35,176 bases of DNA from Deferribacteres bacterium (GCA_013153205.1 JAADEW010000018.1:1-35176); one strand, 5' to 3'. Positions 1 through 18,274 are shown, counted from the stretch's first letter. Made by a program: numbers and translations. The notes: generated from the letters alone by a model not told the origin.

Positions 1-160
1 TCCGGCGCTGGCCCGCAACTGTAACCGGGGACGAAAGCCCGCTTGGTCCCGTCTTTTCGGGATGACAGGCCACTGGAGCTGGAGGGCTTTGGAAGGTTCG
101 AAGGCTCTGGGAAGGCGCGGGCGAGTAGGATGATCCGGAAGCCAGGAGACCGGCCCGAAA
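1..160 (+). promoter_or_regulatory. Cobalamin (B12) riboswitch aptamer; 5' part lies outside the window
   Basis: Conserved cobalamin-riboswitch blocks appear in the right order: CCCGCAACTGTAA (12-24), GCCACTGG (69-76), GGGAAGGCG (109-117) and the B12 box AGCCAGGAGACCGGCC (140-155). The element sits directly upstream of corrinoid transport genes. Confidence 0.85.
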
Positions 161-229
161 GTGTATTCTCCCTTTAAAAGGGGAGAGGCCCTCGAGGAGT
201 GGGGTTGATGTATATGAGGGGATTGCTGT

Positions 230-262
230 GCCCCGGCTCCTTAAGGGCGCCGGGGCTTTTTT
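230..262 (+). terminator. Intrinsic terminator acting as riboswitch expression platform
   Basis: Perfect 8-bp GC stem GCCCCGGC (230-237) / GCCGGGGC (249-256) followed by TTTTTT (257-262). The 5' arm CCGGCTCC (233-240) is also complementary to B12-box GGAGaCCGG (145-153), giving a possible antiterminator. Confidence 0.8.
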
Positions 263-351
263 ATTGCTGTGTTCTGAAGAGGTTGAGGTAGGACTGGGAT
301 AAATGTGTTGGTGTAAGATTAAGTTAAGACTAATTGATAGGAGGTGATGCT

Positions 352-1755
352 ATGAGAAAGTGGTTGGTGGTGCTTGTTCTGGTCTTTTTTCCTTTTGCCG
401 CCTTTTCCGCTGATATCTCTCAGCAGGAGCTGAGACAGCTTGCCGAAACCATTAAGGAGCTGAAGGAGAGGGTGGCGTCTCTTGAGGAAAAGCTCAAAAA
501 GTATGAGGAAAGCGGGGCAAAAGGGGCTGGTGCCGGAGATGTTGCGGAGATGGAGAAGACCCTTTCCTCCCTCAAGGAGGCTCTGGGCAGTATAAAGATT
601 TCTGCCGACATAACCATGGTGGGGCAGGGAACCATCAACAATGGGGACAACATCAGGGGTGAGGGAGATGTGCAGGACGGTGCGTGGAGCTTTGATTTTG
701 AGGTTGAATCAAAGCTCTGGAAAGGAGCAACGGCTTACATGCTTATGGAAGGAGGGCAGGGAGAGGGCGTTGAGGACGAGGTGCCTACCCTTTCCGGTTT
801 TAACGACGACGCTCCCGGAACGGAGAGTGCGCATGTGGAGGTGACCAAAGCATGGTGGGAGCAGGAGTGGGAAGGAAAATGGGGCAGTTTTGTATTTACT
901 CTGGGTAAGGTGGATATAAGCGACTATTTTGACGCAAATGATGTAGCCAACGATGAGACCACTCAGTTTCTTTCAAGCGGTTTTGTCCACAACCTCGCTG
1001 TGGAGTGGCCCGATGATAACGGTCCGGGGGCAAGGCTCACCTTTCAGCCCGGCGATACTCTCTATGTGAGTCTGGGATGGGCAGAGGCTGATGGTGATTG
1101 GGAGGACATCTTTGACGACGGATTCGGAATAGTTGAGGTGGGGCTTCACACCAAGCTTTTCGGACTTGACGGGAACTACAGGGTTTATGCGTGGGTAAAC
1201 TGCAAGGACCACCTTGACGTCTCCCACCTGAAAGATGTGGCAGAGGGGAAAAGAGCCGTGTCAGAGGTTGACGACGATAAGACCAACTGGGGAGTGGGCT
1301 TTTCCTTTGACCAGATGGTTGCGGAAAACATGAAGCTCTTTTTGAGGGGCGGTATAATGGATTCTGATGTGGTCTCTGGCAGTGTTGAGGGTGATGGGAT
1401 TTCCGTTGATACCCTTCCCATCAACGGGGCTTTAAGCTTTGGCTTTTCCGTATCCGGTGCCTGCTGGGGAAGGGCTGGCGACGAGCTGGGTGTTGCTTTC
1501 GGGGTGGTCTTCGTTGACGACGAGGCTCAGAAGTTCTACCGGAATACCGAGCTCACCGATTACTATGACTACTTCAGGAAGCCTGACAGGGTTGATATAG
1601 CCAACGAATATCACCTTGAAGCCTACTACAGGATAAGCTTCTTTGACGGAAGGCTTGAGTTTACCCCTGACTTTCAGGTGGTCTGGAATCCCAACGGCAT
1701 TGATAATGCCGATACCGTTTATGTGCTGGGAACGAGGATGCAGGTTAACTTTTAA
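352..1755 (+). CDS. Outer-membrane porin, OprB/carbohydrate-porin-like beta-barrel with N-terminal coiled coil
   Basis: GGAGGTG (340-346) precedes the ATG at 352; the track's TTG at 334 is less likely. Signal peptide MRKWLVVLVLVFFPFAAFS|AD, then a heptad-like EELRQLAETIKELKERVASLEEKLKKYEE. The remainder is rich in alternating G/D/W/Y/F, includes an OprB-like DETTQFLSSGF block, and ends in ...RMQVNF with a C-terminal Phe typical of OMPs. Confidence 0.7.
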   Translation: MRKWLVVLVLVFFPFAAFSADISQQELRQLAETIKELKERVASLEEKLKKYEESGAKGAGAGDVAEMEKTLSSLKEALGSIKISADITMVGQGTINNGDNIRGEGDVQDGAWSFDFEVESKLWKGATAYMLMEGGQGEGVEDEVPTLSGFNDDAPGTESAHVEVTKAWWEQEWEGKWGSFVFTLGKVDISDYFDANDVANDETTQFLSSGFVHNLAVEWPDDNGPGARLTFQPGDTLYVSLGWAEADGDWEDIFDDGFGIVEVGLHTKLFGLDGNYRVYAWVNCKDHLDVSHLKDVAEGKRAVSEVDDDKTNWGVGFSFDQMVAENMKLFLRGGIMDSDVVSGSVEGDGISVDTLPINGALSFGFSVSGACWGRAGDELGVAFGVVFVDDEAQKFYRNTELTDYYDYFRKPDRVDIANEYHLEAYYRISFFDGRLEFTPDFQVVWNPNGIDNADTVYVLGTRMQVNF

Positions 1756-1769
1756 AAAGGAGGTGCGCT

Positions 1770-2759
1770 ATGAGAGGGTTTAGGACTTTGGTGATTGCAG
1801 GACTGATTTTTATCTGTTTATTTAGCTTTATCCAGCCTTCGGAGGCTAAGATGGAGAGAGGGAAGGAGAAGTCGGCTATCGTTCTTGCCTTTTTCGGCAC
1901 CACTTATCCTTCCGGGTTGAAAGCGGTGGTGAATATACTCCAGACGGTCAAAAAGGCGTTTCCCAATACCGAGGTGAGGGTGACTTTCACATCAAACATC
2001 ATCAGAAGCATATGGAGAAAGAGGCAGAAAGAAGCGAAACTGTGGCTTTCCCGCGGAGTGCCCAAAGAGATTCTCTACGTTAAAGGGATACTCGCTACTA
2101 TGGACGAACTTCAGGAGAGGGGCTACAAAAACATAGTGGTTCAGTCCACGCACATATACCACATGGAACAGGTGGAGGACCTCCTCTCTTACATAAGGGC
2201 GTTGAGGTCTATTGAGACGGTCAAGGAGAGGTGGAGACCGTTTCACAAAATTGCTTTTGGCAGGCCCATCTTTGGGGGTGTGGGGGATAAATACGATTAT
2301 CACGAGGACCTGAAGAAAGCAGTTCTTACTTTGAAGGACGACGTTGAGCTTGCAAGGAGAAAGGGAGCTGTTCTCGTCTATATGGGACACGGTAATGAGT
2401 TCTGGTCCACCGGCATTTACATTGAAGCTCAAAAGATGTTCAGAAAGCTCTTTCCCGATGTGCAGGTCTTTGTTGGAACGGTGGAGGGCTTTCCCTCTCT
2501 GGATGACGTGCTCTATCTGCTGAAGACCCATGCAAAGAGCAAAAAGATTATCCTGAAGCCGCTTATGGTTGTGGCTGGAGACCATGCGCACAATGATATG
2601 GCTGGAGATGAGCCTGATTCATGGAAGAATGTTTTTGAGAAGAACGGATTTGAGGTGACCCCCATCTTTGAAGGGCTTGGGGAGAAACCGGGTATAGCAA
2701 ACATAGTGGTTGAACACATTAAAGACGCCGCAAGAGATGCCGGTATAGTTCTGAAATGA
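1770..2759 (+). CDS. cbiK: CbiK-family sirohydrochlorin cobaltochelatase homologue carrying a signal peptide (exported form)
   Basis: RBS AAGGAGG. CbiK-like blocks AIVLAFFGTTYP, YMGHGNEFW, GTVEGFPS and MVVAGDHAHNDMAGDE are present, so the His/Glu/His catalytic positions are retained. N-terminus MRGFRTLVIAGLIFICLFSFIQPSEA|K looks like a Sec signal peptide. Confidence 0.85.
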   Translation: MRGFRTLVIAGLIFICLFSFIQPSEAKMERGKEKSAIVLAFFGTTYPSGLKAVVNILQTVKKAFPNTEVRVTFTSNIIRSIWRKRQKEAKLWLSRGVPKEILYVKGILATMDELQERGYKNIVVQSTHIYHMEQVEDLLSYIRALRSIETVKERWRPFHKIAFGRPIFGGVGDKYDYHEDLKKAVLTLKDDVELARRKGAVLVYMGHGNEFWSTGIYIEAQKMFRKLFPDVQVFVGTVEGFPSLDDVLYLLKTHAKSKKIILKPLMVVAGDHAHNDMAGDEPDSWKNVFEKNGFEVTPIFEGLGEKPGIANIVVEHIKDAARDAGIVLK

Positions 2760-3604
2760 CGGAGATAGAGGTCAGGTCTTTAAGAAAGAGGTTCGGAAAT
2801 ATAGAAGCTCTGAAAGGCGTGGATTTTGAGGTTAAAAGTGGTGAGATTTTTGCCTTTCTGGGTCCCAACGGGGCGGGTAAAACCACCACCATAAACATAC
2901 TGACGGGACTCATACTGAAGTATGAAGGGGAAATCTTTTATCGGGGGGAGCCTTTCTCCCCCCACAACCTCAAGTTCAAAAAGCTGATAGGGGTTGTCCC
3001 CCAGCACAACAACGTTGACAGGGACCTGTCTGTTGAGGCAAACCTCAAGGTTCACGGATACCTTCACGGCATCTTTGGGAGGAGGCTGAAGGAGGCTATA
3101 GACCGGGTTCTGGAGTTCACCGGACTTACCAACCACAAAAAGAGAAAGGCAGACCATCTTTCAGGTGGTATGAAGAGGAGGCTGGTTATAGCGAGGGCTT
3201 TGATGCACAATCCGGGTATCCTCTTTCTGGATGAGCCTACAGTTGGACTTGACCCTGCCGTGAGAAGGAGCATGTGGGACCTGATAAGAAGCGTTAACTC
3301 GCTTAAGGGATGCACCGTGTTTCTCACCACCCACTACATAGAGGAGGCTGAAATCCTTGCGGATACGGTGGTTATAATAGACAGCGGCAGGGTGGTGGCC
3401 TGCGGAAAACCCGATGAGCTGAAGAGAAGGGTCGGCAGGTATGCCCTTGAGATTTACTACCAGGACAGGATTGAGGAGGAGTTTTTTGAAACCAGAGAGG
3501 AAGCCCTTGAAAGGCTGAAAAGCCTTGATGTGCCTGCTAAAATAAGGGAAGTTAACCTTGAGGATGTGTTCCTGAAGATAACGGGAAGGAGAATAGAGGT
3601 TTGA
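2756..3604 (+). CDS. ABC transporter ATP-binding protein (ABC-2/DrrA-like subfamily)
   Basis: Walker A GPNGAGKTT, signature LSGGMKRRL, Walker B ILFLDEPTVGLD, H-loop TTHY. ATGA overlap with the cbiK stop. Confidence 0.85.
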   Translation: MTEIEVRSLRKRFGNIEALKGVDFEVKSGEIFAFLGPNGAGKTTTINILTGLILKYEGEIFYRGEPFSPHNLKFKKLIGVVPQHNNVDRDLSVEANLKVHGYLHGIFGRRLKEAIDRVLEFTGLTNHKKRKADHLSGGMKRRLVIARALMHNPGILFLDEPTVGLDPAVRRSMWDLIRSVNSLKGCTVFLTTHYIEEAEILADTVVIIDSGRVVACGKPDELKRRVGRYALEIYYQDRIEEEFFETREEALERLKSLDVPAKIREVNLEDVFLKITGRRIEV

Positions 3605-4344
3605 AAGGGGTATGGGCGGTTTTTTACAGGGAGGTTATGTTTCTGAAGCCGAGGTTTTTAAAGGTGATGCTTTCCTCCATCATATATCCCGCTCTGTTTC
3701 TGCTTGCCTTCGGCTACGGTCTCGGGAAGAACGCCAGGGTGGGAAATCTGGATTATGTGGTCTTTCTTATTCCCGGGTTGATAACCATGAGCAGTATGAA
3801 TCAGGCTTACGGCATCTCCCTTGAGGTTCACATATCCCGCTACTACTTCAAGATATTTGAGGAGTATCTTCTTGCTCCCATTAACCGCTGGGAGATAGTG
3901 GTGGGCGAGCTTCTCTACGGAATATTCAAAGGGCTTATCCCGGCTTTCTTCATCACCCTTTATGCCCTTATTTCCGGGATTGGCATAAGGTTGAATCTGG
4001 TTTTTGCCATATGCCTGCTTCTGCATCTTATCTGCTTCTCTCTCATCGGCTATGTGATTGCCATGCTGGTCAAGTCCCATGCGGACCAGGCGGCTTTCAG
4101 CTCTTTTGTGATGGTTCCCATGATATTTCTTTCGGATACCTTTTACCCTATTGAGAAGATGCCTGCGCTGGCGAAGTACATCGGTTACCTCTTTCCCCTC
4201 ACCTATTCCACCAAACTGATAAGAGGGGCTCTTTTAGGGATAGATTCTATGGTTACTTTCAGGAATTTTGCCCTTCTGTTCACCATAACTTTTGCGCTTT
4301 TTGTAATTGCTATATGGGTGACTCAAAGGGCGGAGGTGGTGTAA
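3601..4344 (+). CDS. ABC-2 type transporter permease
   Basis: About 6 predicted TM helices and about 247 aa. N-terminal FYREVMFLKPRF is typical of ABC-2 permeases. The TTG start overlaps the stop of the upstream ATPase; start codon is uncertain. Confidence 0.75.
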   Translation: MKGVWAVFYREVMFLKPRFLKVMLSSIIYPALFLLAFGYGLGKNARVGNLDYVVFLIPGLITMSSMNQAYGISLEVHISRYYFKIFEEYLLAPINRWEIVVGELLYGIFKGLIPAFFITLYALISGIGIRLNLVFAICLLLHLICFSLIGYVIAMLVKSHADQAAFSSFVMVPMIFLSDTFYPIEKMPALAKYIGYLFPLTYSTKLIRGALLGIDSMVTFRNFALLFTITFALFVIAIWVTQRAEVV

Positions 4345-5303
4345 TTAAAAAGCGATACCTTTTTGCTCTTATCCTGCCCCTTGTAGTGGGGGGAGTCTCG
4401 CTTTTTGTGGGTTCCGTTAAGGTGAGCCCGTTTCACCTAACAGGTGAGGGGCTTTACATTCTGAAAACCTTCAGGTTTCCCAGAGTGGTATTTGCTCTCA
4501 TAAACGGTGCCCTTTTGGGGGTGAGCGGCTGTGTTTATCAGCTTATCCTGCGCAATCCCCTTGCCGATGGCTTCACCACGGGAGCCGCCGGTTCATCTGC
4601 GGTGGGAGCCGTTGTTGCCATATCACTGGGACTTCCCATAGGGTATGTGCCTGTTCTGGCGCTGGTATCAGGTCTTCTGGGTCTCTTTTTGGTTTACAGG
4701 ATTTCCTCAAGAGGGGGGCTGATAAACCCTGTTACCATGATACTTGCAGGGGTTGTGGTCAACATCATATCTTCGTCTGTAATAGGATTCCTCAAATACG
4801 CCTTTGAGGAGTCTGTTACCGCCGTTGTCTTCTGGCTTATGGGGGGCTTTTACGCGGTAAGCTATTCCAAGATAGCTTTTGCTTTTCTGGTCTTTGTAGC
4901 CGGCTTTCTCTTTCTGATTTCCAGGGGAAGCACCCTTGATGTCCTCTCCTTTGACGACCTCTCTGCTAAAAGCATGGGGGTTGATGTGGACAGAATGAGG
5001 CTTGTTCTTTTTGTGGTTTCAACCCTTTTTGTGGCGGTGAGTGTCTCCTTCTGTGGAATAATAGGCTTTGTGGGGCTGATAGTGCCTCACATTGTGAGAG
5101 CCATTTTCGGTGCGGGTATGAGGGATAATCTGCTCTTTTCCGCCTCTTTTGGAGCCTCTCTTCTATGTCTGTCCGATGCCCTTTCAAGGAGCGTCATCCC
5201 GTCAGGAGGAGAACTGCCCGTGGGTATCGTTACTTCCATTTTTGGAGGGGGATTCTTCCTCTATCTTCTCATCAGGCGGCAGAGGGAGCTCTGGCATGTA
5301 TGA
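4314..5303 (+). CDS. btuC: FecCD-family ABC permease (BtuC-like corrinoid/siderophore importer)
   Basis: Highly hydrophobic 329 aa. FecCD-like blocks RFPRVVFALINGALLGVSG, NPLADGFTTGAAG, GIIGFVGLIVPHIVR and PVGIVTSIFGGGFFLYLL. Confidence 0.8.
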   Translation: MGDSKGGGGVIKKRYLFALILPLVVGGVSLFVGSVKVSPFHLTGEGLYILKTFRFPRVVFALINGALLGVSGCVYQLILRNPLADGFTTGAAGSSAVGAVVAISLGLPIGYVPVLALVSGLLGLFLVYRISSRGGLINPVTMILAGVVVNIISSSVIGFLKYAFEESVTAVVFWLMGGFYAVSYSKIAFAFLVFVAGFLFLISRGSTLDVLSFDDLSAKSMGVDVDRMRLVLFVVSTLFVAVSVSFCGIIGFVGLIVPHIVRAIFGAGMRDNLLFSASFGASLLCLSDALSRSVIPSGGELPVGIVTSIFGGGFFLYLLIRRQRELWHV

Positions 5304-6006
5304 CTTGAGGGTGTCCGGTCTTTGCGTGGAAAGAGGTGGGTTTCGGCTTGGGCTTTCTCGCCTTTTCATAGGATACGGCGAGAAGGTGGCGGTCATGGGG
5401 GAAAACGGCTCAGGGAAGAGCACCCTGCTGCTTTCTCTGTGTGGAATGTTGTCTTTTAGGGGGGAGGTTTTATACGGTGATAAGCCTGTTTCCGCACTCT
5501 CTTTCAGGGAGAGGGCGAGGATTTTTTCCTACCTGCCGCAGAATCCGGAGATACTTTTTCCCTACACTGTTGAAGAGATAGTTTCTCTGGGATTTGACCG
5601 TTCGGATAAAGACTTTTTAAAGGAGGTTTTCAGCCTTTTTGAGCTTGAGGCAATGAAAAAAGCCAGGATAACGGAGCTTTCGGGAGGGGAGAAGAAGCGC
5701 GTTTTTATAGCAAGGGCTGTGGCTCAATCCGCTCCCATTCTCTTTCTGGATGAGCCCACATCCTCTCTTGATGTGCGGCACAGGGTGCGGTTTCTGGAGT
5801 ATTTGAAGGAATTGAAGAAGACTGTCTGTTGCGTGATGCACGATGTTAACGAAGCTTTGAGGTATTTTGACCGCTTTTTATTTTTAAAAAAGGGTGAGCT
5901 GGTGTATGATTTAAAAAAGGAGGAGGTCAATGAGGAAGTTCTTTCTGACGTTTTTGATGTTGCTGTCTCTTCTTGCCAGTGTTTCGTCTTTTCCTGCTCA
6001 CGCTAA
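5296..6006 (+). CDS. btuD: BtuD/FepC-like ABC importer ATPase
   Basis: An in-frame ATG at 5296 overlaps the btuC stop (ATGTATGA). Walker A GENGSGKST, signature LSGGEKKRV, Walker B ILFLDEPTSSLD. The track's 5149 start would overlap btuC by 155 nt and is unlikely. Confidence 0.8.
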   Translation: MYDLRVSGLCVERGGFRLGLSRLFIGYGEKVAVMGENGSGKSTLLLSLCGMLSFRGEVLYGDKPVSALSFRERARIFSYLPQNPEILFPYTVEEIVSLGFDRSDKDFLKEVFSLFELEAMKKARITELSGGEKKRVFIARAVAQSAPILFLDEPTSSLDVRHRVRFLEYLKELKKTVCCVMHDVNEALRYFDRFLFLKKGELVYDLKKEEVNEEVLSDVFDVAVSSCQCFVFSCSR

Positions 6007-6736
6007 GGTTTACAAAAGGGTTGTGGTGCTTGCTCCTGCCGCCGTTGATATTTTTGAGAAGCTTGACGCCGCAGACCTGATAGTGGGAGTTACTAAAAAT
6101 GTTAAGGGGCTTCCCCATGCAAAGAGGGTCGGGTCCCACATAAGGCCCAACCTTGAGCTGATAGCCGCGTTATCTCCGGATTTGATTGTTATATCTTCAA
6201 ACAGGTTTTTTGCTCCGGCTTTTGCGAAAAAGCTGAACGCGGATATCTTTTACTACAACCCGGTTACCCTTGAGGGTATTATCGCCAAGATAGAGGAGCT
6301 TGCGGGATTGATAGGAAGAGAGGATAAGGCTTACTCTCTGGTGAGAGAGCTTAAAAATAAGCTTTCTTCTGTCAAGCCTCTCAAAAAATCTCCCCGGGTT
6401 GTGTATGAGGTTATGGAGCATCCCCTCATCTTTGCCGGTAAGAAGAACATTGTGGCGGACATAATACAGAAGGCGGGGGGAACCTTCCTTCCAGATATTC
6501 CCAAGAAGTTTGTTAGATTTTCTTACGAGAGGATTCTGGTGTTGAAGCCAGACATATACATCTATCAGGTGGGTCCCATGAACAAGAATCCCACCCCTCC
6601 CCTCAAAAGGCCTTATCTCAAGGGGCTAAAAGCTGTCTTTTTAAGGGTCAACGAGCTTGACTTTTCCCGACCCAACACCAGAAGCTTTGATAACGTGCTC
6701 TTTCTCAACAGGGTATTTTATGAGCTGGAGGAGTAG
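5930..6736 (+). CDS. btuF: Periplasmic substrate-binding protein, class III (BtuF-like)
   Basis: RBS AGGAGGAGG. Signal peptide MRKFFLTFLMLLSLLASVSSFPAHA|K. Typical Peripla_BP_2 start RVVVLAPAAVDIFEKLDAADLIVGVT...PNLELIAALSPDLIVIS. Confidence 0.75.
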   Translation: MRKFFLTFLMLLSLLASVSSFPAHAKVYKRVVVLAPAAVDIFEKLDAADLIVGVTKNVKGLPHAKRVGSHIRPNLELIAALSPDLIVISSNRFFAPAFAKKLNADIFYYNPVTLEGIIAKIEELAGLIGREDKAYSLVRELKNKLSSVKPLKKSPRVVYEVMEHPLIFAGKKNIVADIIQKAGGTFLPDIPKKFVRFSYERILVLKPDIYIYQVGPMNKNPTPPLKRPYLKGLKAVFLRVNELDFSRPNTRSFDNVLFLNRVFYELEE

Positions 6737-6738
6737 AG

Positions 6739-7221
6739 ATGGAGAAGGCACCGCACTTTTGTCTTGAAGGCATAACGCCGGACGGAAAGGTTAAGACCAT
6801 ATGTCTGGACGAACTTCTTTCGCAAAAGCCTTTTCTGGTTCTTTACTTTTATCCTAGGGACAACACCCCCGGATGCACCAAGGAGGCTTGTGAGTTCAGG
6901 GATAACCTTTCACGCATTACCCCCTATGCCACCGTTGCCGGAATAAGTCCGGACAGCATCAAAAGCCACGAGAATTTCAGAAAGAAGCATGAGCTCAACT
7001 TTTACCTGTTGAGCGACCCTGAAAAGGAGGTGTGCAGGTTATACGGGGCATACGGGGAGAAGAAGATGTATGGCAAGGTGCGGGAGGGAGTTATAAGGTC
7101 AACCTTTATTATCTCATCCGATGGGATTATTTTAAAGAGTTGGAGAAACGTCAGGGTCAAAGGGCACGTTGACAAGGTGATTGAAGAGCTCAAAAGACTT
7201 TCGGAGGGTGAGGGTGAGTGA
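6739..7221 (+). CDS. bcp: Peroxiredoxin Bcp/PrxQ (thiol peroxidase)
   Basis: Motif YFYPRDNTPGCTKEACEFRD (peroxidatic and resolving Cys), about 160 aa. Starts 2 nt after the btuF stop. Confidence 0.85.
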   Translation: MEKAPHFCLEGITPDGKVKTICLDELLSQKPFLVLYFYPRDNTPGCTKEACEFRDNLSRITPYATVAGISPDSIKSHENFRKKHELNFYLLSDPEKEVCRLYGAYGEKKMYGKVREGVIRSTFIISSDGIILKSWRNVRVKGHVDKVIEELKRLSEGEGE

Positions 7222-7531
7222 ATTCGTGGCAGTTATGACCACCACGGATGATGAGAAGGTGGCTGAAAAAATTTGCAGAACATTGGTTGAGGAGAGGCTT
7301 GCCGCATGTGCGCAGGTTATTAAAGGCATAAAGAGCTTTTACTGGTGGGAAGGGAAGGTGGAGGAGAGTGAGGAGTTTCTGATATTTTTGAAAACAAAGG
7401 CACAGCTTCTTCCGAGGCTTGAAGAGAGGCTGAAGAGGCTTCACAATTATTCCGTTCCGGAGATAGTGGCTCTGCCTTTTGTTTCCGGTAGCAGAGAGTA
7501 TTTTGACTGGATGCTTGAGAATCTGATTTAG
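7214..7531 (+). CDS. cutA: Divalent-cation tolerance protein CutA
   Basis: CutA1 blocks [31 protein letters not shown] and [19 protein letters not shown]. Start is uncertain: GTG at 7214 follows GGAGGGTGAGG, while the track's ATG at 7181 overlaps bcp by 41 nt. Confidence 0.8.
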
Positions 7532-7543
7532 AGGAAATTTTTT

Positions 7544-7570
7544 TAAAGTTGGCGTAATCTTTTCCGATTT
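7544..7570 (+). promoter_or_regulatory. Putative sigma28 (FliA)-type promoter for the MCP gene
   Basis: TAAA (7544-7547), exactly 15 nt, then tCCGATtt (7563-7570), against the consensus TAAA-N15-GCCGATAA. It lies about 35 nt upstream of the MCP ATG, and the downstream gene is a chemoreceptor. Confidence 0.5.
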
Positions 7571-7604
7571 AAACTGTAAGTCCGGCGGTTGTGGAGGAAA
7601 GGGA

Positions 7605-9338
7605 ATGTTCAGGCGGCTTTCCATAGGGACCAAGATAATACTTATCGTTATTCTGGGATTTTTGCTGAGCTATTTGATTAACGTTTACGTTACCAAAAGG
7701 GAATTTGTTCGCTTTGCCATAGAGAAGCTCGTTGAGCGTGCAAGGGGTGTGGCTATCGTTGCTGAAAACACCATGAAGTATGTTGATGAACTTCACAGGG
7801 AAGGGGTCTTTAACGACAGGGTTCTTGAGGAGGAGTTTAAAAAGAGCGTTGAAGCAGGTGTTCCCATTACCCAGACCAAGCTCTACAAAGCGATACCTGT
7901 GGTTGCCGGGTGGCAGGTGGCGATGAGAAGGGCTAAGGAGGCAGGCTATCAGTTCCGCGTGATAAAGCAGAACCCGAGGAATCCTGCCCATCAGCCCACC
8001 GCCTTTGAGAACGAGATGCTCAATGCGGCTAAAAAAGCCGGAAAAAATGAGATATGGCGGCTTTCCCCGGACGGCAAAAAGCTTTATTACATGCGCCTTT
8101 TGAGGCTATCCAAAAGCTGTCTCAAGTGCCACGGGAGCATAGAAGACGATGTGAACCACGATGGAGTGGATATCACCGGTGCCAGGATGGAAGGGTGGAA
8201 GGAAGGGGAGTTCCACGGTGCCTATGTCTTTATAGCTGATATGGGCAGGGTCTATCAGGAGGTCAACAGCGTCATGCTGAAGCAGATAGCCTATGGCGCC
8301 GTGGTGGTTGCTCTGGTGATACTTCTCATCTGGTTTGCCCTGAGGAAGTTGCTTTCCGAACCTGTGGCAAAGCTTGTGGAAGCCCTTGAGCTTCTTGCCG
8401 AAAGGAACCTCGGAATTGAGCTGAATCTGGATAGGGAGGACGAAATAGGAGCCATTGCTGAAAGCGTTAACAGGACCGCATCGGGTATGAGGGAAGCGGT
8501 TCTTGAGGTTAAGGAAGCCAAGGACGAGATAGAGACCAGCGTGGACAACCTTTCCGGAATTGCGGAGGAGGTGAAGAGAGGGGCTGAGGAGCAGTTTGAG
8601 CGGGTGGACCAGGTGGCAGCGGCGTCCGAGGAGTTCAGCGTAACCAGCCAGACCGTAGCCAATTCCGCCGCTTCAGTGAGGGAGAAGGCGGTTGAACAGT
8701 CGGAGAAGGTGAAGATAGGCGAGGAAGCGGTGAAGGGCATGATGGAGAAGATGAGGGAGATAGCGGAGGCGGTGGAGCATTCAGCTCAAACCATTGAAAA
8801 GCTTGGCAAATCCAGCGAGAGAATAGGCGAGATAACCAACGTCATAACGGAGATAGCCGAGCAGACCAATCTCTTGGCGCTTAACGCGGCTATTGAGGCG
8901 GCAAGAGCCGGCGAGCACGGAAGGGGCTTTGCCGTGGTGGCTGACGAGGTGAGGAAGCTTGCGGATAGAACGCAGAAGGCTACTAAAGAGATAGCAGAGA
9001 TGGTCAACAGTATAAGAAACGATTCTATGGAAGCGGTGGATAAGGTGAAGGAGGGAGTGAACAAGGTTGAAGAGGGGCTGGAGATTTCCGACAGGGTCAG
9101 CGAGGTTTTAAGCTCCATAGTGGAAGCGGTTGAGAGCATTACGGAGATGTCCCTTGAGATAACCAATGCCACCAAAGAGCAGGAGATTGCTTCCAGAGAC
9201 ATAGCCGATAACATTCAGGTTCTGGCGGATGTGGCTTCAAAGAATAAAGAGAACGCCAGAGAGATGGTAGAGGTCCTTGAATTCGTGAAGAGGGCTATAC
9301 AAAACCTGAAAAGGGTGGTTGAAAGCTTTAAGTTCTGA
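7605..9338 (+). CDS. Methyl-accepting chemotaxis protein with periplasmic Tll0287-like (DUF3365) c-type heme sensor domain
   Basis: TM1 [19 protein letters not shown]. Periplasmic region with [18 protein letters not shown]...[17 protein letters not shown], with the CXXCH at nt 8118-8132. TM2 [18 protein letters not shown], a HAMP-like segment, then the MCP hairpin tip [35 protein letters not shown]. Confidence 0.85.
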
Positions 9339-9424
9339 TTGGCTTGCTTCCCCTAACTTTGGACTTGCGTAATTTATCGGTTTGACATAACCTCTTTCCT
9401 AACCTGATACGTTAGGGGTCTGCG

Positions 9425-10186
9425 ATGGTTGTTTTGCTTTCTAACGATGATGGAGTGAACGCTTTTGGTCTGCATGCGTTGAGGAAGGAGCTGTCAAAGA
9501 TTGCCGATGTCTGGGTGGTGGCACCCGACAGGCAGAGAAGTGCGGCAAGCCACTCTTTGACCCTTCACAGGCCCCTCAAGGTCACCGAAATTGAGGAGAA
9601 GGTGTTTGCCGTGGACGGAACCCCGACAGATGCGGTTATTCTCGGCATCAACAAGCTTATGCCGGTTAAACCGGATATAGTGGTATCGGGGATAAACGAA
9701 GGTCCCAATCTGGGCGATGACATAACCTATTCTGGAACGGTCTCTGCCGCCATGGAAGGGACGATTCTGGGGGTGCCTGCCGTTGCCACCTCCCTTGCCG
9801 TGGCGGATTTTAAGAATTACAGAGCCGCCGCAAAGGCAGCGGTCAGAATAGTTGAGTGGGTTTGCGAAAACGGCTTGCCTGAGGGTGTTTTGCTCAATGT
9901 GAACTTTCCTGATGTCAGGGAATACAGCGACTTTAAAGGGGTCAGGTGGACCCGTCAGGGGAGGAGGATATACACCGATTACATTTACGAGTTGAAAGAC
10001 CCCCGCGGCAACGTTTATTACTGGATAGGCGGTTTTCCCGTTGAAGACCATGAGGATAACGACGACGGCGAGGAGACGGATATTGGAGCGGTGAAAAAGG
10101 GCTTTATATCCATAACCCCGGTTAAACTGGATTTGACCGACTACAGTATGCTGGAGCGGGTAAAAAACATAAAGCTGGAGCTGTGA
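9425..10186 (+). CDS. surE: 5'/3'-nucleotidase SurE
   Basis: VLLSNDDGVNAFGLHAL and SGINEGPNLGDDITYSGTVSAAMEG signature blocks. Confidence 0.9.
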   Translation: MVVLLSNDDGVNAFGLHALRKELSKIADVWVVAPDRQRSAASHSLTLHRPLKVTEIEEKVFAVDGTPTDAVILGINKLMPVKPDIVVSGINEGPNLGDDITYSGTVSAAMEGTILGVPAVATSLAVADFKNYRAAAKAAVRIVEWVCENGLPEGVLLNVNFPDVREYSDFKGVRWTRQGRRIYTDYIYELKDPRGNVYYWIGGFPVEDHEDNDDGEETDIGAVKKGFISITPVKLDLTDYSMLERVKNIKLEL

Positions 10187-10189
10187 AGC

Positions 10190-10831
10190 ATGTTTGAGGA
10201 GAGAAGAAAGGCTCTGGTTGAGCTTCTCAGAAAAAAAGGCATCAGGGACGAGAGGGTGCTTAACGCCATCCTCAGAGTTCCCCGCCATCTCTTTGTGCCG
10301 CCTGAGCTTGTGGACAGGGCATACGACGACCGCCCCCTGCCCATAGGTAAGGGACAGACCATCTCTCAGCCTTACATAGTGGCTCTTATGACTGAAGCCC
10401 TGGGAATAGACGAGGATTCCAGGGTGCTTGAGATAGGCACAGGCTCCGGATATCAGGCGGCTGTTCTGGCGGAGATAGCGAAGGATGTCTATACCGTAGA
10501 GAGAATCCCGGAGCTTTCCGAAAGGGCGAGGAAGATAATTGAGGGGTTGGGATATAAAAATGTTTTCTTCAAGGTGGGAGACGGCACCTGCGGCTGGCCC
10601 GAACATGCCCCCTATGATGCCATTATAGTAACTGCCGCATCTCCCAGAATTCCTAAGCCTCTGATAAAACAGCTTAAAGTGGGGGGGAGACTTGTAATAC
10701 CTGTGGGTAATGAATTGACACAGGAGCTTCTTAGGATTACAAAGATTACCGAAGACGGAAAGGTAGATATTGAGTCTTTGGGTGGCTGTGTTTTTGTGAA
10801 GCTGAAGGGAAAGTATGGATGGGAAGAATAG
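10190..10831 (+). CDS. pcm: Protein-L-isoaspartate O-methyltransferase
   Basis: GQTISQPYIVALMTE and the SAM motif VLEIGTGSGYQAAVLA, followed by GGRLVIPVG. Directly follows surE. Confidence 0.9.
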   Translation: MFEERRKALVELLRKKGIRDERVLNAILRVPRHLFVPPELVDRAYDDRPLPIGKGQTISQPYIVALMTEALGIDEDSRVLEIGTGSGYQAAVLAEIAKDVYTVERIPELSERARKIIEGLGYKNVFFKVGDGTCGWPEHAPYDAIIVTAASPRIPKPLIKQLKVGGRLVIPVGNELTQELLRITKITEDGKVDIESLGGCVFVKLKGKYGWEE

Positions 10832-10832
10832 A

Positions 10833-10906
10833 CGGGGCGTAGCGCAGCCTGGTAGCGCACCAGCTTCGGGAGCTGGGGGTCGCCGGTTCGAAGCCGGCCG
10901 CCCCGA
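10833..10906 (+). tRNA. tRNA-Pro (anticodon CGG), no encoded CCA
   Basis: Hand-folded cloverleaf. Acceptor CGGGGCG/CGCCCCG; D stem GCGC/GCGC with loop AGCCTGGTA; anticodon stem CCAGC/GCTGG with loop TTCGGGA (CGG at 10867-10869); variable GGGTC; T arm GCCGG-TTCGAAG-CCGGC; discriminator A. Confidence 0.9.
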
Positions 10907-10910
10907 TTTT

Positions 10911-11354
10911 ATTATCGGTGTTATAGGTGCCTCCATCGCCACCTCCCGTGATTTGGAGAATGCCTTTGCAATCGGTAAACTCATAGCACAGCTTGGGTGT
11001 GCCCTTATATGCGGCGGGCTTGGCGGGGTGATGGAGGCTGCCGCCAGAGGGGCTAAGGAGGCAGGTGGGCTGACCATCGGGGTAATCCCCGGCTACAGCA
11101 AATCCGACGCCAATCCGTATATTGACGTGCCTATTGCAACGGGACTGGGCCATGCGAGGAATGTGATAATAGCGGCTACCTCCGATGCGCTTGTGGCTGT
11201 GGGGGGTGAGTATGGAACCCTTTCTGAGATAGCCTTTTCCCTTAAGATGGGAAAGCCTGTTATATCCCTTTTCAGCTGGGATATACCCGGGGTGATAAAA
11301 GCAGGGGACCCGGAGGAGGCTTTTGCCCTTCTTAAGGAGGTCCTTTCTTGCTGA
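10911..11354 (+). CDS. LOG/SLOG-superfamily Rossmann protein (TIGR00725-like)
   Basis: IGVIGAS...[33 protein letters not shown]...[42 protein letters not shown] matches the TIGR00725/LOG-like fold pattern. The start is unresolved, because there is no in-frame ATG/GTG/TTG between the tRNA end and the conserved first strand. ATT 10911 and ATC 10914 are the only candidates. Confidence 0.6.
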
Positions 11355-12172
11355 GAAGGATTGTCCTTTTCCTTTTGATTCCTGCCATCTCCTACTCGGC
11401 ACAGCTTTGCGTTTACAGGGTTAAAAAGGGGGATACCCTGCTGAAGATAGCAAAAAGATACGGGGTCAGTAAGACGAGGCTTCTGCGTCTGAACAGGGGC
11501 AACATCAGAAATCCCAATGTTCTTGTGGTTGGGCAGAGGATATTCGTTCCCTGTAAGAGGGGAGAGATTCCGAATTTCTGCGTCTATAAAGTGAAAAAGG
11601 GAGAGACCCTTATCATGCTTGCGAGAAGATTTGGCCTGTCCCTTGAGTTTATCAAGCGGGTAAACGGTATAACCAACCCTTCAAGAATCAGGGTGGGTAT
11701 GCCTTTGAGAGTCCCCTGCGAAAAGCTCGTTGAGTGGAAGATAAAGAGAAAGATAAAGCCTTACGATTCCAAGGGGATTCTCGGCGAAAAGTTTAAGCTT
11801 AAAGGGATGTGGTTCTACAATCCGCTGAAGAGAGCCACCATCGCCGTCAAAATTGCGGAAAGAATAGACATTCCCGTTAAGCGGGGAAACTACATTTACG
11901 CCACCTATAACGGGGTGGTTATATACGCCTCTTCTACCATTAACGGGCTTTCCTCTTTGGTGATAATAAAGCATCCGGGAGGGTTATACAGCATATACGC
12001 CGGAGAGAACCTGGTGTGGAAGGTGAGGGAAGGTATGCGGGTCAAAAGGGGGGCTTTTATAGGTTTTGCAAAGGCTGATACCCTGCTGCACTTTGAGATA
12101 AGGCATGGGGAAAAGCCTTTGAATCCTGAAAAATATATGATAGTTGAATCTAAAAAGACCGGTAGGGAGTGA
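11348..12172 (+). CDS. nlpD: NlpD-like protein: 2x LysM plus a degenerate LytM (M23) domain
   Basis: RBS AAGGAGG then TTG. Signal peptide, followed by two LysM repeats ([27 protein letters not shown]; [27 protein letters not shown]). The C-terminal M23-like block is GVVIYAS...[16 protein letters not shown]...[15 protein letters not shown]. The HxxxD His (AERIDI) and the first His of HxH are both missing. Confidence 0.8.
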
Positions 12173-12175
12173 CAG

Positions 12176-13486
12176 ATGAAGATATCCGTTATTGGTGCTG
12201 GCTATGTTGGAGTGGTTACTGCCGCCTGTTTTGCAGAGTTTGGCAACGAAGTGGTCTGCGTTGATAAGGTAAAAGAGAAGGTGGAAGCCCTGTCTGAGGG
12301 GAAGATACCCTTTTATGAGCCCGGACTTGAGGAGCTCGTAAAGAAAAACCTGAAAGAGGGCAGGCTCTTTTTCACCTCGGACATTGATAAAGCCATTCAG
12401 GACGCTCTGGTCATCTTCATCGCCGTGGGAACTCCTCCCAGAGGGGATGGGTCTGCGGACCTCACCTATGTTGAGGAGGTTGCGAAAAAGATTGCTGAGA
12501 ACCTCAACGACTACAAGGTGGTGGTTACCAAAAGCACCGTTCCGGTGGGAACGGGCCACAGGATAAAAGAAATTATAGAAAAGGCGAGGAACAACAACTG
12601 CTCCTTTGACGTGGCTTCTAACCCTGAGTTTCTGCGGGAGGGCTCTGCCGTTTACGACTTCATGCATCCGGACAGGGTGGTGATTGGGACTGAGAGCGAT
12701 TCTGCAAGGGCAATTTTGAGGGACCTTTACCGGCCCCTTTATCTAAGGGATACCCCTTTTGTTTTCACTGACATAAAGACTGCAGAGCTTATAAAATACG
12801 CTTCCAACTCCTTTCTGGCTATGAAGATATCCTTCATCAACGAAATAGCCAATCTGTGCGACATAATAGGTGCGGATGTGCATGTGGTAGCTAAAGCTAT
12901 GGGGCTTGACGGCAGGATAGGTCCTAAATTTCTCCATCCGGGGCCCGGTTTCGGAGGCTCCTGTTTTCCCAAGGATACCAGGGCGCTAATCAAGATAGCC
13001 GAGGAGAGGGGGTATGACTTCAAGCTGGTTAAAGCAACCGTTGAGGTCAACGAGCTTCAGAAAGAGCGCTCTTTTCAGAAGATAAAGGACATGCTCGGCG
13101 GAAGCGTTTCGCAGAAGAGGGTTGCCCTTCTCGGCCTTTCCTTCAAGCCCAACACCGACGACATCAGGGAGTCACCTGCCATATACATAGCCAGAAGGCT
13201 GAGGGAGGAAGGGGCGTATGTAAGGGCTTTTGACCCTGCCGCCATGGACAATGCAAAAGCTGAGCTGGGGGACGAAGGGATATATTACGCCGAAAGTGCT
13301 TATGACGCCGCAAACGGTGCCCACGCAGTTGCCGTGGTTACCGAATGGAATCAGTTTAGAAACCTTGACCTTGCCCGGCTTAAAGAGGCTATGGAAGGGG
13401 ATGTGCTCGTTGATTTGAGGAACATATATGAGCCTGAAAAAGCCAGAAAAATAGGCTTTAAATATACGGGTATGGGGAGGAGTTGA
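12176..13486 (+). CDS. ugd: UDP-glucose 6-dehydrogenase (UDP-glucose/GDP-mannose dehydrogenase family)
   Basis: MKISVIGAGYVGVVTAACFA Rossmann start, NPEFLREGSAVYD, catalytic GGSCFPKD, FKPNTDDIRESPA. Confidence 0.9.
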   Translation: MKISVIGAGYVGVVTAACFAEFGNEVVCVDKVKEKVEALSEGKIPFYEPGLEELVKKNLKEGRLFFTSDIDKAIQDALVIFIAVGTPPRGDGSADLTYVEEVAKKIAENLNDYKVVVTKSTVPVGTGHRIKEIIEKARNNNCSFDVASNPEFLREGSAVYDFMHPDRVVIGTESDSARAILRDLYRPLYLRDTPFVFTDIKTAELIKYASNSFLAMKISFINEIANLCDIIGADVHVVAKAMGLDGRIGPKFLHPGPGFGGSCFPKDTRALIKIAEERGYDFKLVKATVEVNELQKERSFQKIKDMLGGSVSQKRVALLGLSFKPNTDDIRESPAIYIARRLREEGAYVRAFDPAAMDNAKAELGDEGIYYAESAYDAANGAHAVAVVTEWNQFRNLDLARLKEAMEGDVLVDLRNIYEPEKARKIGFKYTGMGRS

Positions 13487-13782
13487 TGTTTATCGTCTCC
13501 AATTTTATCAGGGCGCTGGCATACATACTGGATATGGTTTTGAAGCTCTACTTCTGGATAATAATTATAAGGGCGATTATTTCGTGGGTTAATCCTGACC
13601 CCTATAATCCCATAGTGAGGTTCCTCTATCAGGTTACCGAGCCTGTGTTGAGACCCATAAGGAGAATAATTCCGCCTATAGGTGGTATAGATTTGTCTCC
13701 CATGGTGGTGATACTGGTGATATATTTTCTGCAGATTTTTCTCGTTCCTACCCTTCTGCAGATTGCTTACAGCCTGAGATGA
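13486..13782 (+). CDS. yggT: YggT-family membrane protein
   Basis: YFWIIIIRAIISWVNPDPYNPIVRFLYQVTEPVLRPIRRIIPPIGGIDLSPMV is the classic YggT pattern. TGATG overlap with ugd; the TTG at 13483 is an alternative start. Confidence 0.85.
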   Translation: MFIVSNFIRALAYILDMVLKLYFWIIIIRAIISWVNPDPYNPIVRFLYQVTEPVLRPIRRIIPPIGGIDLSPMVVILVIYFLQIFLVPTLLQIAYSLR

Positions 13783-14057
13783 TAAGGGAAAAGCAGGGCA
13801 GGGTTTTTATTGACGTAAGGGTTCAGCCCAGAGCATCCAGAAAGAGGTATGAGTGTGCAGACGGGGTGGTGAAGCTGTGGGTTACGGCTCCACCTGTTGA
13901 CCAGAAGGCAAATGAGGCGGTTGTGGAGTTTGTGGCTGAAATCCTTTCGGTGAGAAAGAGCGCGGTCAGAATAGAGAAGGGGCTTAAATCTAAAAACAAG
14001 GTGGTGTCCGTGGAGGGACTGCCCCTTGAAAAAGTTGTGGAGAGGTTGAAATGCTGA
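13779..14057 (+). CDS. DUF167 (YggU) family protein
   Basis: About 92 aa with VRVQPRASRKR...VKLWVTAPPVDQKANEAVVEFVAEIL, typical of DUF167. Conserved yggT-yggU adjacency and an ATGA overlap. Confidence 0.8.
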   Translation: MIREKQGRVFIDVRVQPRASRKRYECADGVVKLWVTAPPVDQKANEAVVEFVAEILSVRKSAVRIEKGLKSKNKVVSVEGLPLEKVVERLKC

Positions 14058-15100
14058 AACCCGTTTATCTTACCGAAGACGACGCCGTTGCCATAATAGA
14101 CCAGAGGAGACTGCCTCTTGAAGTTGTCTGGCTCAAGCTCAGGGCGGTTTCAGAGGTGGCTGAGGCTATAAAGACCCTTGCCGTGAGGGGAGCTCCTGCC
14201 ATAGGCATTGCGGCGGCATACGGGGTTTACATTGCCGTCAAGGACTTTACTGAAGGGTATGACGCCTTTTACGAGAGGTTCAGGAAGGCTAAAAAGCTTC
14301 TTGCTTCCACCAGACCCACCGCCGTTAATCTCTTCTGGGCTCTTGATAGGATGGAGAGGGTGCTCAAAGAGAATCCCCTCCTTCCTGTCCACAAGCTTGT
14401 GAAAAAGCTGAGGGCGGAGGCCGTAAAGATTCAGGAGGAAGACCTTGAAAGCTGTATAAGAATGGGGGAACTGGGGGCTGAGCTTCTGCCGGATGGTGCC
14501 AGGGTTCTGACCCACTGCAATGCCGGTGCTCTCGCCACTGGGGGATACGGAACCGCTTTGGGGGTGGTGCGTAAGGGCTATGAAAAGGGAAGGGTGGAGC
14601 TCGTGTGGGTTGACGAAACCCGTCCACTTCTTCAGGGGGCAAGGCTCACCGCGTGGGAGATGGAATACGAGGGCATACCCTACAAGGTGGTTACCGATAA
14701 CATGGCAGGTTTCCTCATGTCCAAGGGGATGGTTGATGTGGTGATTGTGGGAGCCGACAGAATAGCGGCGAATGGGGATACGGCGAACAAGATAGGCACC
14801 TATTCTCTGGCTGTTCTTGCAAGGCACCACCGCATTCCTTTCATAGTGGCGGCACCGGTTTCAACCTTTGACCTCAGCCTCTCAAGGGGTGCCGACATTC
14901 CCATTGAGGAGAGAAATGAGCTTGAGGTTCTTGAGTTCAGAGGAGTGAGGGTTACTCCAAAGGGCGCAAAGGCTTATAACCCCGCTTTTGACGTGACTCC
15001 TTCTGAGCTAATCAGCTTTATAGTGACGGAGAAGGGAGTGATTGAGCCTCCCTTCAGTAAAAACATAGAGGCTCTTTTGAGAAATGAAGATAAGGTGTAA
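14051..15100 (+). CDS. mtnA: S-methyl-5-thioribose-1-phosphate isomerase (eIF-2B alpha/beta/delta-related family)
   Basis: IDQRRLP, AIKTLAVRGAPAIGIAAAYG, TRPTAVNLFWAL, THCNAGALATGGYGTALGV, VGADRIAANGDTANKIGTY, NPAFDVTP. Ribose-1,5-bisphosphate isomerase cannot be excluded by eye. Confidence 0.8.
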   Translation: MLKPVYLTEDDAVAIIDQRRLPLEVVWLKLRAVSEVAEAIKTLAVRGAPAIGIAAAYGVYIAVKDFTEGYDAFYERFRKAKKLLASTRPTAVNLFWALDRMERVLKENPLLPVHKLVKKLRAEAVKIQEEDLESCIRMGELGAELLPDGARVLTHCNAGALATGGYGTALGVVRKGYEKGRVELVWVDETRPLLQGARLTAWEMEYEGIPYKVVTDNMAGFLMSKGMVDVVIVGADRIAANGDTANKIGTYSLAVLARHHRIPFIVAAPVSTFDLSLSRGADIPIEERNELEVLEFRGVRVTPKGAKAYNPAFDVTPSELISFIVTEKGVIEPPFSKNIEALLRNEDKV

Positions 15101-18204: not shown

Positions 18205-18231
18205 CTGAAAGGGAGAGTTCCGAAATAAAAA

Positions 18232-18258
18232 GGGGGGCTTCACTTGGAGCCCCCTTTT
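18232..18258 (+). terminator. Intrinsic terminator after fbp
   Basis: Stem GGGGGCT (18233-18239) / AGCCCCC (18248-18254), loop TCACTTGG, followed by TTTT. Confidence 0.75.
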
Positions 18259-18274
18259 ACTTATTTTAGATACC

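Follow-up and report, generated by a model that had tools for sequence, protein, structure and literature searches.

In 2004, a cobalamin (vitamin B12) element was described 5′ of cbiK-cbiL plus btuCDF of Desulfovibrio (Rodionov, PMC545781), and a Fur-regulated porin of the OprB family adjoining feoAB is known from Geobacter (PMC545781). Further described systems with comparable parts are the Iht operon of Porphyromonas gingivalis, consisting of the TonB-dependent receptor IhtA, the lipoprotein IhtB/FetB and IhtCDE, the BtuB-BtuFCD system of Escherichia coli, and the CbiX/CbiK plus CbiMNQO route of Salmonella and Geobacter, in which the cobalt ion is imported and chelated in the cytoplasm. Here, a contig of a Deferribacteres bacterium (GCA_013153205.1, JAADEW010000018.1; 35,176 nucleotides (nt), referred to as the window) was analyzed, whose first 7,531 nt carry a cobalamin riboswitch followed by nine genes (Table 1). 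The operon is tentatively interpreted as a B12-repressed, envelope-spanning module that would provide the de novo synthesis of cobamides with a cobalt-loaded tetrapyrrole. A preliminary description, made from the sequence of the window, had considered it a TonB-independent module for the capture of corrinoids or cobalt.

The module resembles the cbiK(P)-btuCDF-cbiL locus of Desulfovibrio vulgaris in that a riboswitch-controlled CbiK with a signal peptide is located beside a FecCD-type importer and CbiL, whereas the operon of the window additionally contains an OprB-type porin and a pair of ABC-2 (ATP-binding cassette, type 2) genes, and has Bcp-CutA instead of CbiL. The Desulfovibrio locus was compared via the published account (PMC545781), and the closest examined proxy without the ABC-2 pair is NaphS2 (L082; L numbers denote the loci compared). 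As in the Iht operon, genes for an outer-membrane channel, an exported homolog of CbiK and a FecCD importer are combined in one operon of the window, but here the channel is a porin and not a TonB-dependent receptor, CbiK has no lipobox, and an extra ABC-2 exporter is encoded. The module is linked to cob genes and has a B12 riboswitch instead of a heme or iron response; it does not classify as an Iht-type operon. The Geobacter feoAB porin and the porins of the NCBIfam model NF033921 belong to the same Pfam family as the porin of the window and are likewise encoded with an inner-membrane metal transporter, but the window porin is under control of a B12 riboswitch and has a chelatase and ABC systems as partners, which implies cobalt. 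The window and BtuB-BtuFCD have in common the cobalamin riboswitch leader and a type II ABC importer whose binding protein belongs to Peripla_BP_2, whereas the window operon lacks a TonB-dependent receptor, has an importer scoring under the BtuCDF cut-offs, and contains an exported chelatase and the ABC-2 pair. Finally, the module would serve the same step as CbiX/CbiK plus CbiMNQO (cobalt into sirohydrochlorin, then CbiL) under the same B12 feedback, but its chelatase has a signal for export and CbiMNQO was not seen in the module clusters examined.

Table 1. Predicted features of the riboswitch-led operon at the start of the window.
Feature	Position	Strand	Evidence
Cobalamin riboswitch aptamer	1..172	+	RF00174; 5′ third outside the window
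Intrinsic terminator (expression platform)	230..265	+	hairpin 230-256 and U-run
OprB-family porin, signal peptide, N-terminal coiled coil	352..1755	+	PF04966 6.5e-38
Exported class II chelatase CbiK	1770..2759	+	PF06180 2e-72; signal peptide ~residues 1-26
DrrA/NodI-type ABC ATPase, partner of the ABC-2 permease	2756..3604	+	PF00005; TIGR01188 drrA 1.1e-77
ABC-2 exporter-type permease	3601..4344 (start possibly 3637)	+	PF01061 1.7e-21
FecCD-family BtuC-like importer permease	4314..5303	+	PF01032 1.6e-74
Importer ATPase, BtuD/HmuV-like	~5296..6006	+	PF00005
Periplasmic binding protein Peripla_BP_2, signal peptide	5930..6736	+	PF01497 6.5e-16
Bcp/PrxQ peroxiredoxin	6739..7221	+	PF00578 6.4e-31
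CutA, small trimeric divalent-ion-tolerance protein, last gene of the operon	~7226..7531	+	PF03091 1.5e-36

The leader was searched with covariance models. Positions 1-172 of the window matched RF00174 with 62.7 bits (gathering score 31.5) at model positions 62-189, the match starting at position 62 because the 5′ end is cut by the window edge. On a longer, near-identical contig of the same organism (L163, porin 99% identical), the complete aptamer was found at 9606-9818 with 93.9 bits at model positions 1-189 of RF00174, directly 3′ of a GGDEF gene. A covariance model built in this analysis from the riboswitches of the porin loci (R1) gave 110 bits for the aptamer. Downstream of the aptamer, direct folding revealed a G + C-rich hairpin (230-256, -23.1 kcal/mol, z = -2.6) followed by UUUUUU, which had been overlooked by a simple terminator scan due to an internal mismatch. 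The predicted terminator is located 85 nt 5′ of the porin start, as expected for an expression platform, and in a wider fold of the leader a longer hairpin competes with it. Thus, the B12 riboswitch with terminator given in the preliminary description was confirmed.

The description of nine tightly packed genes of the families in Table 1 agrees with the profile matches. The largest gap, between the porin and CbiK genes, amounts to 14 nt, and the remaining junctions overlap or are separated by 2-4 nt. The simple scan yielded 10 terminator-like matches within the operon, which is not above the 11.8 expected from shuffled sequence and is in line with the earlier statement that no internal terminator precedes position 7,531.

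To define the conserved part of the operon, an alignment of the ABC-2 permease was scanned against metagenome contigs, resulting in 26 orthologous loci (38-99% identity) and 54 generic loci (about 30%). At all loci with at least 50% identity and enough flanking sequence, the ABC-2 pair is located directly upstream of FecCD, and mostly directly downstream of CbiK. The 54 generic loci served as a control, and in none of them is a riboswitch, CbiK or FecCD located in the vicinity of the ABC-2 genes. Orthologs of the permease between CbiK and FecCD were found in L087, L092, L095, L100, L101, L167, L168, and L169, and the complete order CbiK, ABC-2 ATPase, permease, FecCD, ATPase, and binding protein in L001, L006, L007, L087, L092, L095, L100, L101, L163, L164, L167, and L168. 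Wherever upstream DNA was available, the module is led by a riboswitch; L092 has two of them in tandem on the same strand 5′ of CbiK (7609-8044). The core was found in Thermosulfidibacter-like metagenome-assembled genomes, Deferribacterota and Desulfuromonadales, spanning at least three phyla. The permease family comprises 466 clusters at E ≤ 1e-30, including the cultured Deferribacter, Geovibrio, Malonomonas, Desulfuromonas, Geothermobacter, and Geopsychrobacter. Judged by gene order, the conserved core is the riboswitch, the predicted exported CbiK, the ABC-2 ATPase and permease, and the FecCD-type importer, and the permease is the signature gene of this predicted module. The co-occurrence of cassette and riboswitch in relatives, on which the first proposal depended, was therefore found in the same order and with RF00174 across lineages, and the ABC-2 pair, included there as a member of the system, is co-conserved with CbiK and FecCD.

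The relatives also connect the module with de novo cobamide synthesis. A CbiL-like methyltransferase gene follows directly 3′ of the binding protein gene in 12 loci, and in L168, L081, L093, and L100/L101 the module is located inside cobamide synthesis (cob) gene clusters, in which the exported CbiK is the only chelatase. Neither a CbiM/CbiQ-type cobalt transporter nor a second chelatase was found within up to 10 kb in the loci from named genomes and cob clusters that were examined. In Geopsychrobacter (L167), the riboswitch is followed by CbiK, the ABC-2 pair, the importer and CbiL. On a Geovibrio-type contig (L168), the riboswitch-led module is surrounded by a complete anaerobic cob cluster with CbiD, CbiG, CbiJ, CbiC, CbiA, several methylases and a SirC-like gene; CobA, ExbBD, TonB and a TonB-dependent receptor are encoded behind the module. 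In Geothermobacter (L169), CbiK is divergent from a unit of the ABC-2 pair, importer and CbiL, each with one riboswitch, so that two cobalamin riboswitches are arranged back to back (8589-9052). Deferribacter desulfuricans (L081) has the order riboswitch, cbiA, cbiK, importer, and cbiL, followed by the remaining pathway genes, and its orthologous ABC-2 pair (58% identical) is encoded divergently next door to the cob cluster. The preliminary description had missed this link to de novo synthesis.

CbiK matched PF06180 with 244 bits and the NCBIfam equivalog NF047852 with 137 bits, below the cut-off of 400; by its profile scores the protein is assigned to a subfamily distinct from the cytoplasmic enzyme. 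The PDB matches were 2xvx (D. vulgaris periplasmic CbiK), 9b86 (P. gingivalis FetB) and 1qgo, of which the first two are the closest solved structures, and the chelatase fold and the metal ligands are the same as in 2xvx. The catalytic residues His207/Glu239/His272, corresponding to His145/Glu175/His207 of Salmonella CbiK, are invariant in 18 orthologs and the Salmonella enzyme. The Shine-Dalgarno sequence AAAGGAGG is located 7 nt 5′ of the ATG at 1770, and an N-terminal extension resembling a signal peptide is present in all of about 40 homologs sampled and in 18 of 18 module CbiKs, while its sequence diverges. A positive n-region, a hydrophobic core and an AxA-type site were recognized in all orthologs, and a lipobox is missing in the window CbiK. 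The predicted signal peptide is therefore upheld, and an artefact of the start codon assignment was ruled out by the Shine-Dalgarno sequence and by the extension in all orthologs. From these features, CbiK looks exported and catalytically active.

Directly behind the predicted CbiK cleavage site, a methionine (Met28, ATG at 1851) is encoded with GGAGG 7 nt upstream (1839-1853). A methionine at this position, after the AxA site and often followed by a His-rich stretch, recurs in many orthologs. From the ATG at 1851, a cytoplasmic isoform could be initiated internally, or the methionine could belong to an N-terminal metal site.

The relationship to 2xvx and FetB also brings in heme or iron acquisition, as proposed for periplasmic CbiK of D. 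vulgaris and the Iht system, where the exported CbiK would bind or de-metalate heme and the importer would take up heme or iron. Heme-binding IsdE is the top match of the binding protein in the PDB and in NCBIfam, and the genes of the Iht operon are arranged similarly (PMC12094164). For the exported FetB, cobalt and manganese chelatase activity outside the cytoplasm is described, but no reverse chelatase activity on hemin (PMC13065792). The module is controlled by the B12 riboswitch, not by iron, in every lineage and is found within cob clusters beside CbiL. Periplasmic D. vulgaris CbiK is a heme-binding protein with His96 as its heme ligand; this residue (chain position 96 of 2xvx) aligns to Glu136 of the window CbiK. 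A heme or iron function is thus regarded as very improbable.

For the importer, the family level is satisfied, as the permease and the binding protein belong to FecCD and Peripla_BP_2 in Pfam. The NCBIfam equivalog scores are 199.6 for BtuC (cut-off 461), 112 for BtuD (281) and 41 for BtuF (234), so that the earlier assignment as a canonical BtuC/BtuD/BtuF importer holds for the families but is too specific for all three proteins. BtuC is the best NCBIfam match of the permease, and the ATPase matched a heme ABC ATPase first and a corrinoid ATPase second, all under the cut-offs. The binding protein scored slightly higher with heme-binding IsdE than with BtuF, and its PDB matches to IsdE (2e-9) and to B12-binding proteins (1e-7 to 1e-5) are about equally weak. 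The genes of the ATPase and the binding protein overlap by 50-77 nt (5930-6006), and a comparably long overlap is found in L081, L082, L163, L167, L168, and L169.

The ABC-2 permease reached 77 bits with PF01061, and the paired ATPase 261 bits with drrA (subfamily cut-off 312) and 58% identity to its Deferribacter ortholog. An ABC2_membrane permease with a DrrA/NodI-type ATPase belongs by family to the exporter type, and the pair is predicted accordingly. The sole sequence match in the PDB was to ABCG proteins.

The porin matched PF04966 with 131.5 bits (cut-off 22.9), and the NCBIfam model for iron uptake porins NF033921 weakly in its C-terminal part (21 bits, cut-off 100). The AlphaFold (AF2) model, with a mean confidence (pLDDT) of 81, consists of an N-terminal coiled coil and a barrel. 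In a Foldseek search, OprB of Pseudomonas putida (4GEY) was the best PDB match (E 1e-22, TM-score 0.66/0.72), followed by other 16-stranded diffusion porins including the coiled-coil porin DcaP, and nothing resembling a TonB-dependent transporter was found in this fold search. Porin homologs were collected with the porin alignment as query and one genome per species, resulting in 80 loci; the closest cultured relative is Thermosulfidibacter takaii with 67% identity.

In the five closest of these loci (L001, L002, L003, L006, and L007), RF00174 was detected directly upstream of the porin gene with 84-100 bits, and the closest loci with downstream sequence (L001, L002, L006, and L007) show the order of the window from the porin through the binding protein. 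Two distant loci of deltaproteobacterial type are rearranged, with riboswitch, CbiK, binding protein and porin in L030 and riboswitch, CbiK, a CbiL-like gene and porin in L041. Searching all 80 loci with R1 gave only two further riboswitch matches (L037 and L065). These were rejected as porin-linked, as they precede a metE fragment and nrdD, respectively, both classic targets of B12 control, and the porins are located in feoAB operons. With these two left out, the porin is part of a riboswitch-led gene array in 7 of 80 loci, and on this distribution it is classified as a lineage-specific addition to the conserved core.

The immediate same-strand neighbors of the other porin homologs (50 upstream and 46 downstream) were counted. 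Upstream, NikR was found in 15/50 and FeoB in 13/50 cases; downstream, CbiM/NikM occurred in 12/46, DUF4198 in 5/46 and ZnuA in 1/46. Triads of NikR, porin and CbiM were confirmed individually in L062 (9369-12057), L066 (9387-12070) and L078 (9447-12064). The porins of L005, L008, and L009 are located behind FeoB, although their identity of 55-58% is like that of the B12-linked ones. The transition-metal porin clade (L014-L080) extends over Omnitrophota, Planctomycetota, Thermodesulfobacteriota, and Nitrospirota, with the arrangements NikR-porin-CbiM/NikM or FeoB-porin. Metal-linked porins of the OprB family usually carry the annotation "carbohydrate porin", and the neighboring metal-uptake genes (NikR, CbiM, FeoB, and ZnuA) argue for metal cations as putative solutes instead. 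By context and model, the porin of the window is probably a small-solute channel from a clade for divalent transition metals, with Co2+ as the logical solute because of the B12 riboswitch control and the metal-uptake clade, whereas a role in the passage of corrinoids is unlikely.

Some observations concern the outer-membrane component of relatives. L164, with a CbiK 83% identical to that of the window and a genome of about 36% G + C, has a leader that is recognizably homologous to riboswitch and terminator; this leader shows many G-to-A and C-to-T changes, no RF00174 match, and 14.7 bits with R1. The porin open reading frame (ORF) is broken into three pieces, and the genes from CbiK through CutA are intact. 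Riboswitch and porin (1774-3529) appear to be decaying in L164. In L165 (9627-13018), the riboswitch and exported CbiK are followed by a protein of 416 amino acids (aa) and then CbiL. The 416-aa protein has a signal peptide, a coiled coil, a beta-rich body and a faint match to DUF3573. It was rejected as a porin homolog (E 0.009, confined to the coiled-coil region) and may fill the role of the porin as a non-orthologous barrel of the outer membrane.

The porin data bear on corrinoid salvage as proposed in the preliminary description, in which the porin replaces BtuB, CbiK binds a corrinoid or tetrapyrrole, the importer is a true BtuFCD, and the ABC-2 pump clears unwanted corrinoid fragments or analogs. 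BtuFCD under a riboswitch is the classic arrangement, BtuC is the best NCBIfam match of the permease, the binding protein weakly matches B12-binding proteins, and TonB-dependent receptors are encoded in the same riboswitch-led units of L168 and L166. However, OprB-type pores generally exclude solutes of the size of cobalamin (~1.3 kDa), and the porin is modeled as such a 16-stranded channel. Its close paralogs serve FeoB and Nik systems, and all importer parts remain far under the BtuC/BtuD/BtuF equivalog cut-offs. In addition, salvage leaves the invariant chelatase site, the co-conserved exporter and the adjacent CbiL unexplained. A replacement of BtuB by the porin is therefore unlikely, given the 16-stranded OprB fold of the model and relatives adjoining NikR, CbiM/NikM, FeoB, DUF4198, and ZnuA, and corrinoid salvage as the main function of the operon is considered unlikely as well.

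The metal-uptake clade of the porin is in line with an uptake of cobalt ions, in which the porin admits Co2+, CbiK is a periplasmic cobalt chaperone, the FecCD importer takes up ligand-bound Co2+, and the ABC-2 pair exports the ligand or acts as an overflow valve. Chelation would then be cytoplasmic, by another chelatase or an internally initiated isoform of CbiK, for which the recurrent methionine past the signal peptide and the GGAGG in front of ATG 1851 could speak. Peripla_BP_2 includes a nickel-complex binder (4ls3, among the PDB matches of the binding protein), and crystal structures show cobalt on a His of periplasmic CbiK (PMC4063343). On the other hand, the catalytic triad is invariant in all exported CbiKs and would not be needed in a mere binder, the module contains no genes for the synthesis of a ligand, and the close pairing with CbiL indicates the product of a chelatase and not free cobalt. 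This explanation is rated as rather doubtful.

The supply of a cobalt-loaded tetrapyrrole, which is preferred here as a provisional reading, covers all of the conserved genes. With adenosylcobalamin in short supply, the riboswitch would permit read-through of the terminator. The OprB-type porin would let Co2+ into the periplasm, while the ABC-2 pump would export a metal-free precursor, most simply sirohydrochlorin. There, the exported CbiK with its intact active site would insert cobalt, and the FecCD-type importer with its binding protein would return the cobalt-tetrapyrrole and may also import corrinoids. CbiL, whose gene closes the module in most lineages and is presumably located elsewhere in the organism of the window, would take the pathway onward. 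In a stricter version, the exported CbiK is the sole cobaltochelatase, and sirohydrochlorin is exported by the ABC-2 system as a "cobaltophore", loaded with Co2+ in the periplasm and re-imported by a BtuCDF-like pump for use by CbiL, so that free cobalt would not need to reach the cytoplasm; this version is possible, but held with less confidence. The proposed supply route also fits published accounts in which delta-proteobacteria using cbiK are without known cobalt transporters, while Geobacter pairs CbiX with CbiMNQO (PMC545781; PMC7726332).

Several points weigh against the supply of a cobalt-tetrapyrrole by the module. All substrates, the direction of ABC-2 transport and the periplasmic site of chelation, like the transport assignments in general, are inferred from family type and gene context. 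The operon of the window contains no CbiL, and genes for a further chelatase in the cytoplasm and for a cobalt importer may be located beyond the flanks of up to 10 kb that were examined; D. vulgaris also encodes a cytoplasmic CbiK. The methionine and GGAGG past the cleavage site leave room for a cytoplasmic CbiK isoform in the window as well. CobA, ExbBD, TonB and the TonB-dependent receptor in L168 resemble ordinary corrinoid salvage with an importer carrying corrinoids. Finally, the exporter is not obligatory, as loci with exported CbiK but no ABC-2 pair exist (L082, L165, and L166). In L166, from a genome of 7.7 Mb, a riboswitch is located 5′ of a TonB-dependent receptor and exported CbiK (7116-10987), and a second one on the other strand 5′ of a FecCD-type importer with a CobN-like gene nearby (11191-20816).

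The last two genes of the operon were also regarded as module members in the preliminary description. Bcp/PrxQ matched PF00578 with 107 bits, below the equivalog cut-offs, and shows the Cys-x4-Cys motif PGCTKEAC in its translation. CutA matched PF03091 with 124.6 bits and narrowly failed its NCBIfam equivalog (106.5, cut-off 120). With gaps of 2 and 4 nt, both genes are translationally coupled to the operon. Apart from the window, Bcp-CutA was seen 3′ of the binding protein gene in no other loci than L163 and L164, and it was rejected as part of the core, as it is not found after the importer in L001, L006, L087, L092, L095, L167, L168, and L169. Because it is restricted to these two closest contigs and CbiL occupies the slot in other lineages, Bcp-CutA is seen as a lineage-specific add-on, and their membership in the module was dropped. 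From the distribution of the genes, Bcp and CutA are judged a recent local addition outside the conserved module, which may buffer redox or metal stress.

Downstream, a gene for a methyl-accepting chemotaxis protein (MCP; 7605-9338) with a Tll0287-like sensor domain and a CxxCH motif (CLKCH) starts 73 nt 3′ of CutA. No clear terminator was found between CutA and this gene in the window. A membership of the MCP gene in the operon is not supported, and L164 has convergent genes directly 3′ of CutA instead. The remaining window from 9.4 to 35 kb contains housekeeping genes (SurE, FtsK, class V fructose-1,6-bisphosphatase, a TRAP transporter, nusA-infB-rbfA, MutL, and ProS) and a tRNA-Pro (CGG) at 10833-10906, which is overlapped by long spurious ORFs on both strands.

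With regard to novelty, no publication was found in the literature searched on an ABC-2 system under a B12 riboswitch, on the whole ensemble or on periplasmic cobalt insertion, and a recent review covers cobalt entry through the outer membrane generically only. The novelty claimed in the preliminary description therefore applies to the porin and the ABC-2 pair, for which no description was found, but not to cbiK-cbiL and btuCDF under a B12 element, known since 2004 (PMC545781). New are the co-conservation of the ABC-2 exporter pair, the control of a metal-type porin by the riboswitch, and the consistent location of the module inside de novo cob clusters. The porin appears to be the first riboswitch-controlled one of the metal-uptake kind, and with it a large group of related OprB-family porins, forming a clade associated with the uptake of Ni, Co, and Fe, was identified.

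So far, CbiKs with a signal peptide were assigned to heme or iron handling, although they are encoded beside btuCDF and cbiL under B12 control. The model proposed here offers a testable way in which anaerobes would gain cobalt for B12 without free cobalt reaching their iron-sulfur-rich cytoplasm, and with Deferribacter, Geovibrio, Geopsychrobacter, Geothermobacter, and Malonomonas, cultured carriers of the module are accessible to experiments. If true, it could explain the absence of a recognized cobalt transporter in delta-proteobacteria of the cbiK type; in the stricter version, one step of vitamin B12 synthesis would take place outside the cytoplasm, and the module would stand in for a cobalt importer as well as for a cytoplasmic chelatase.

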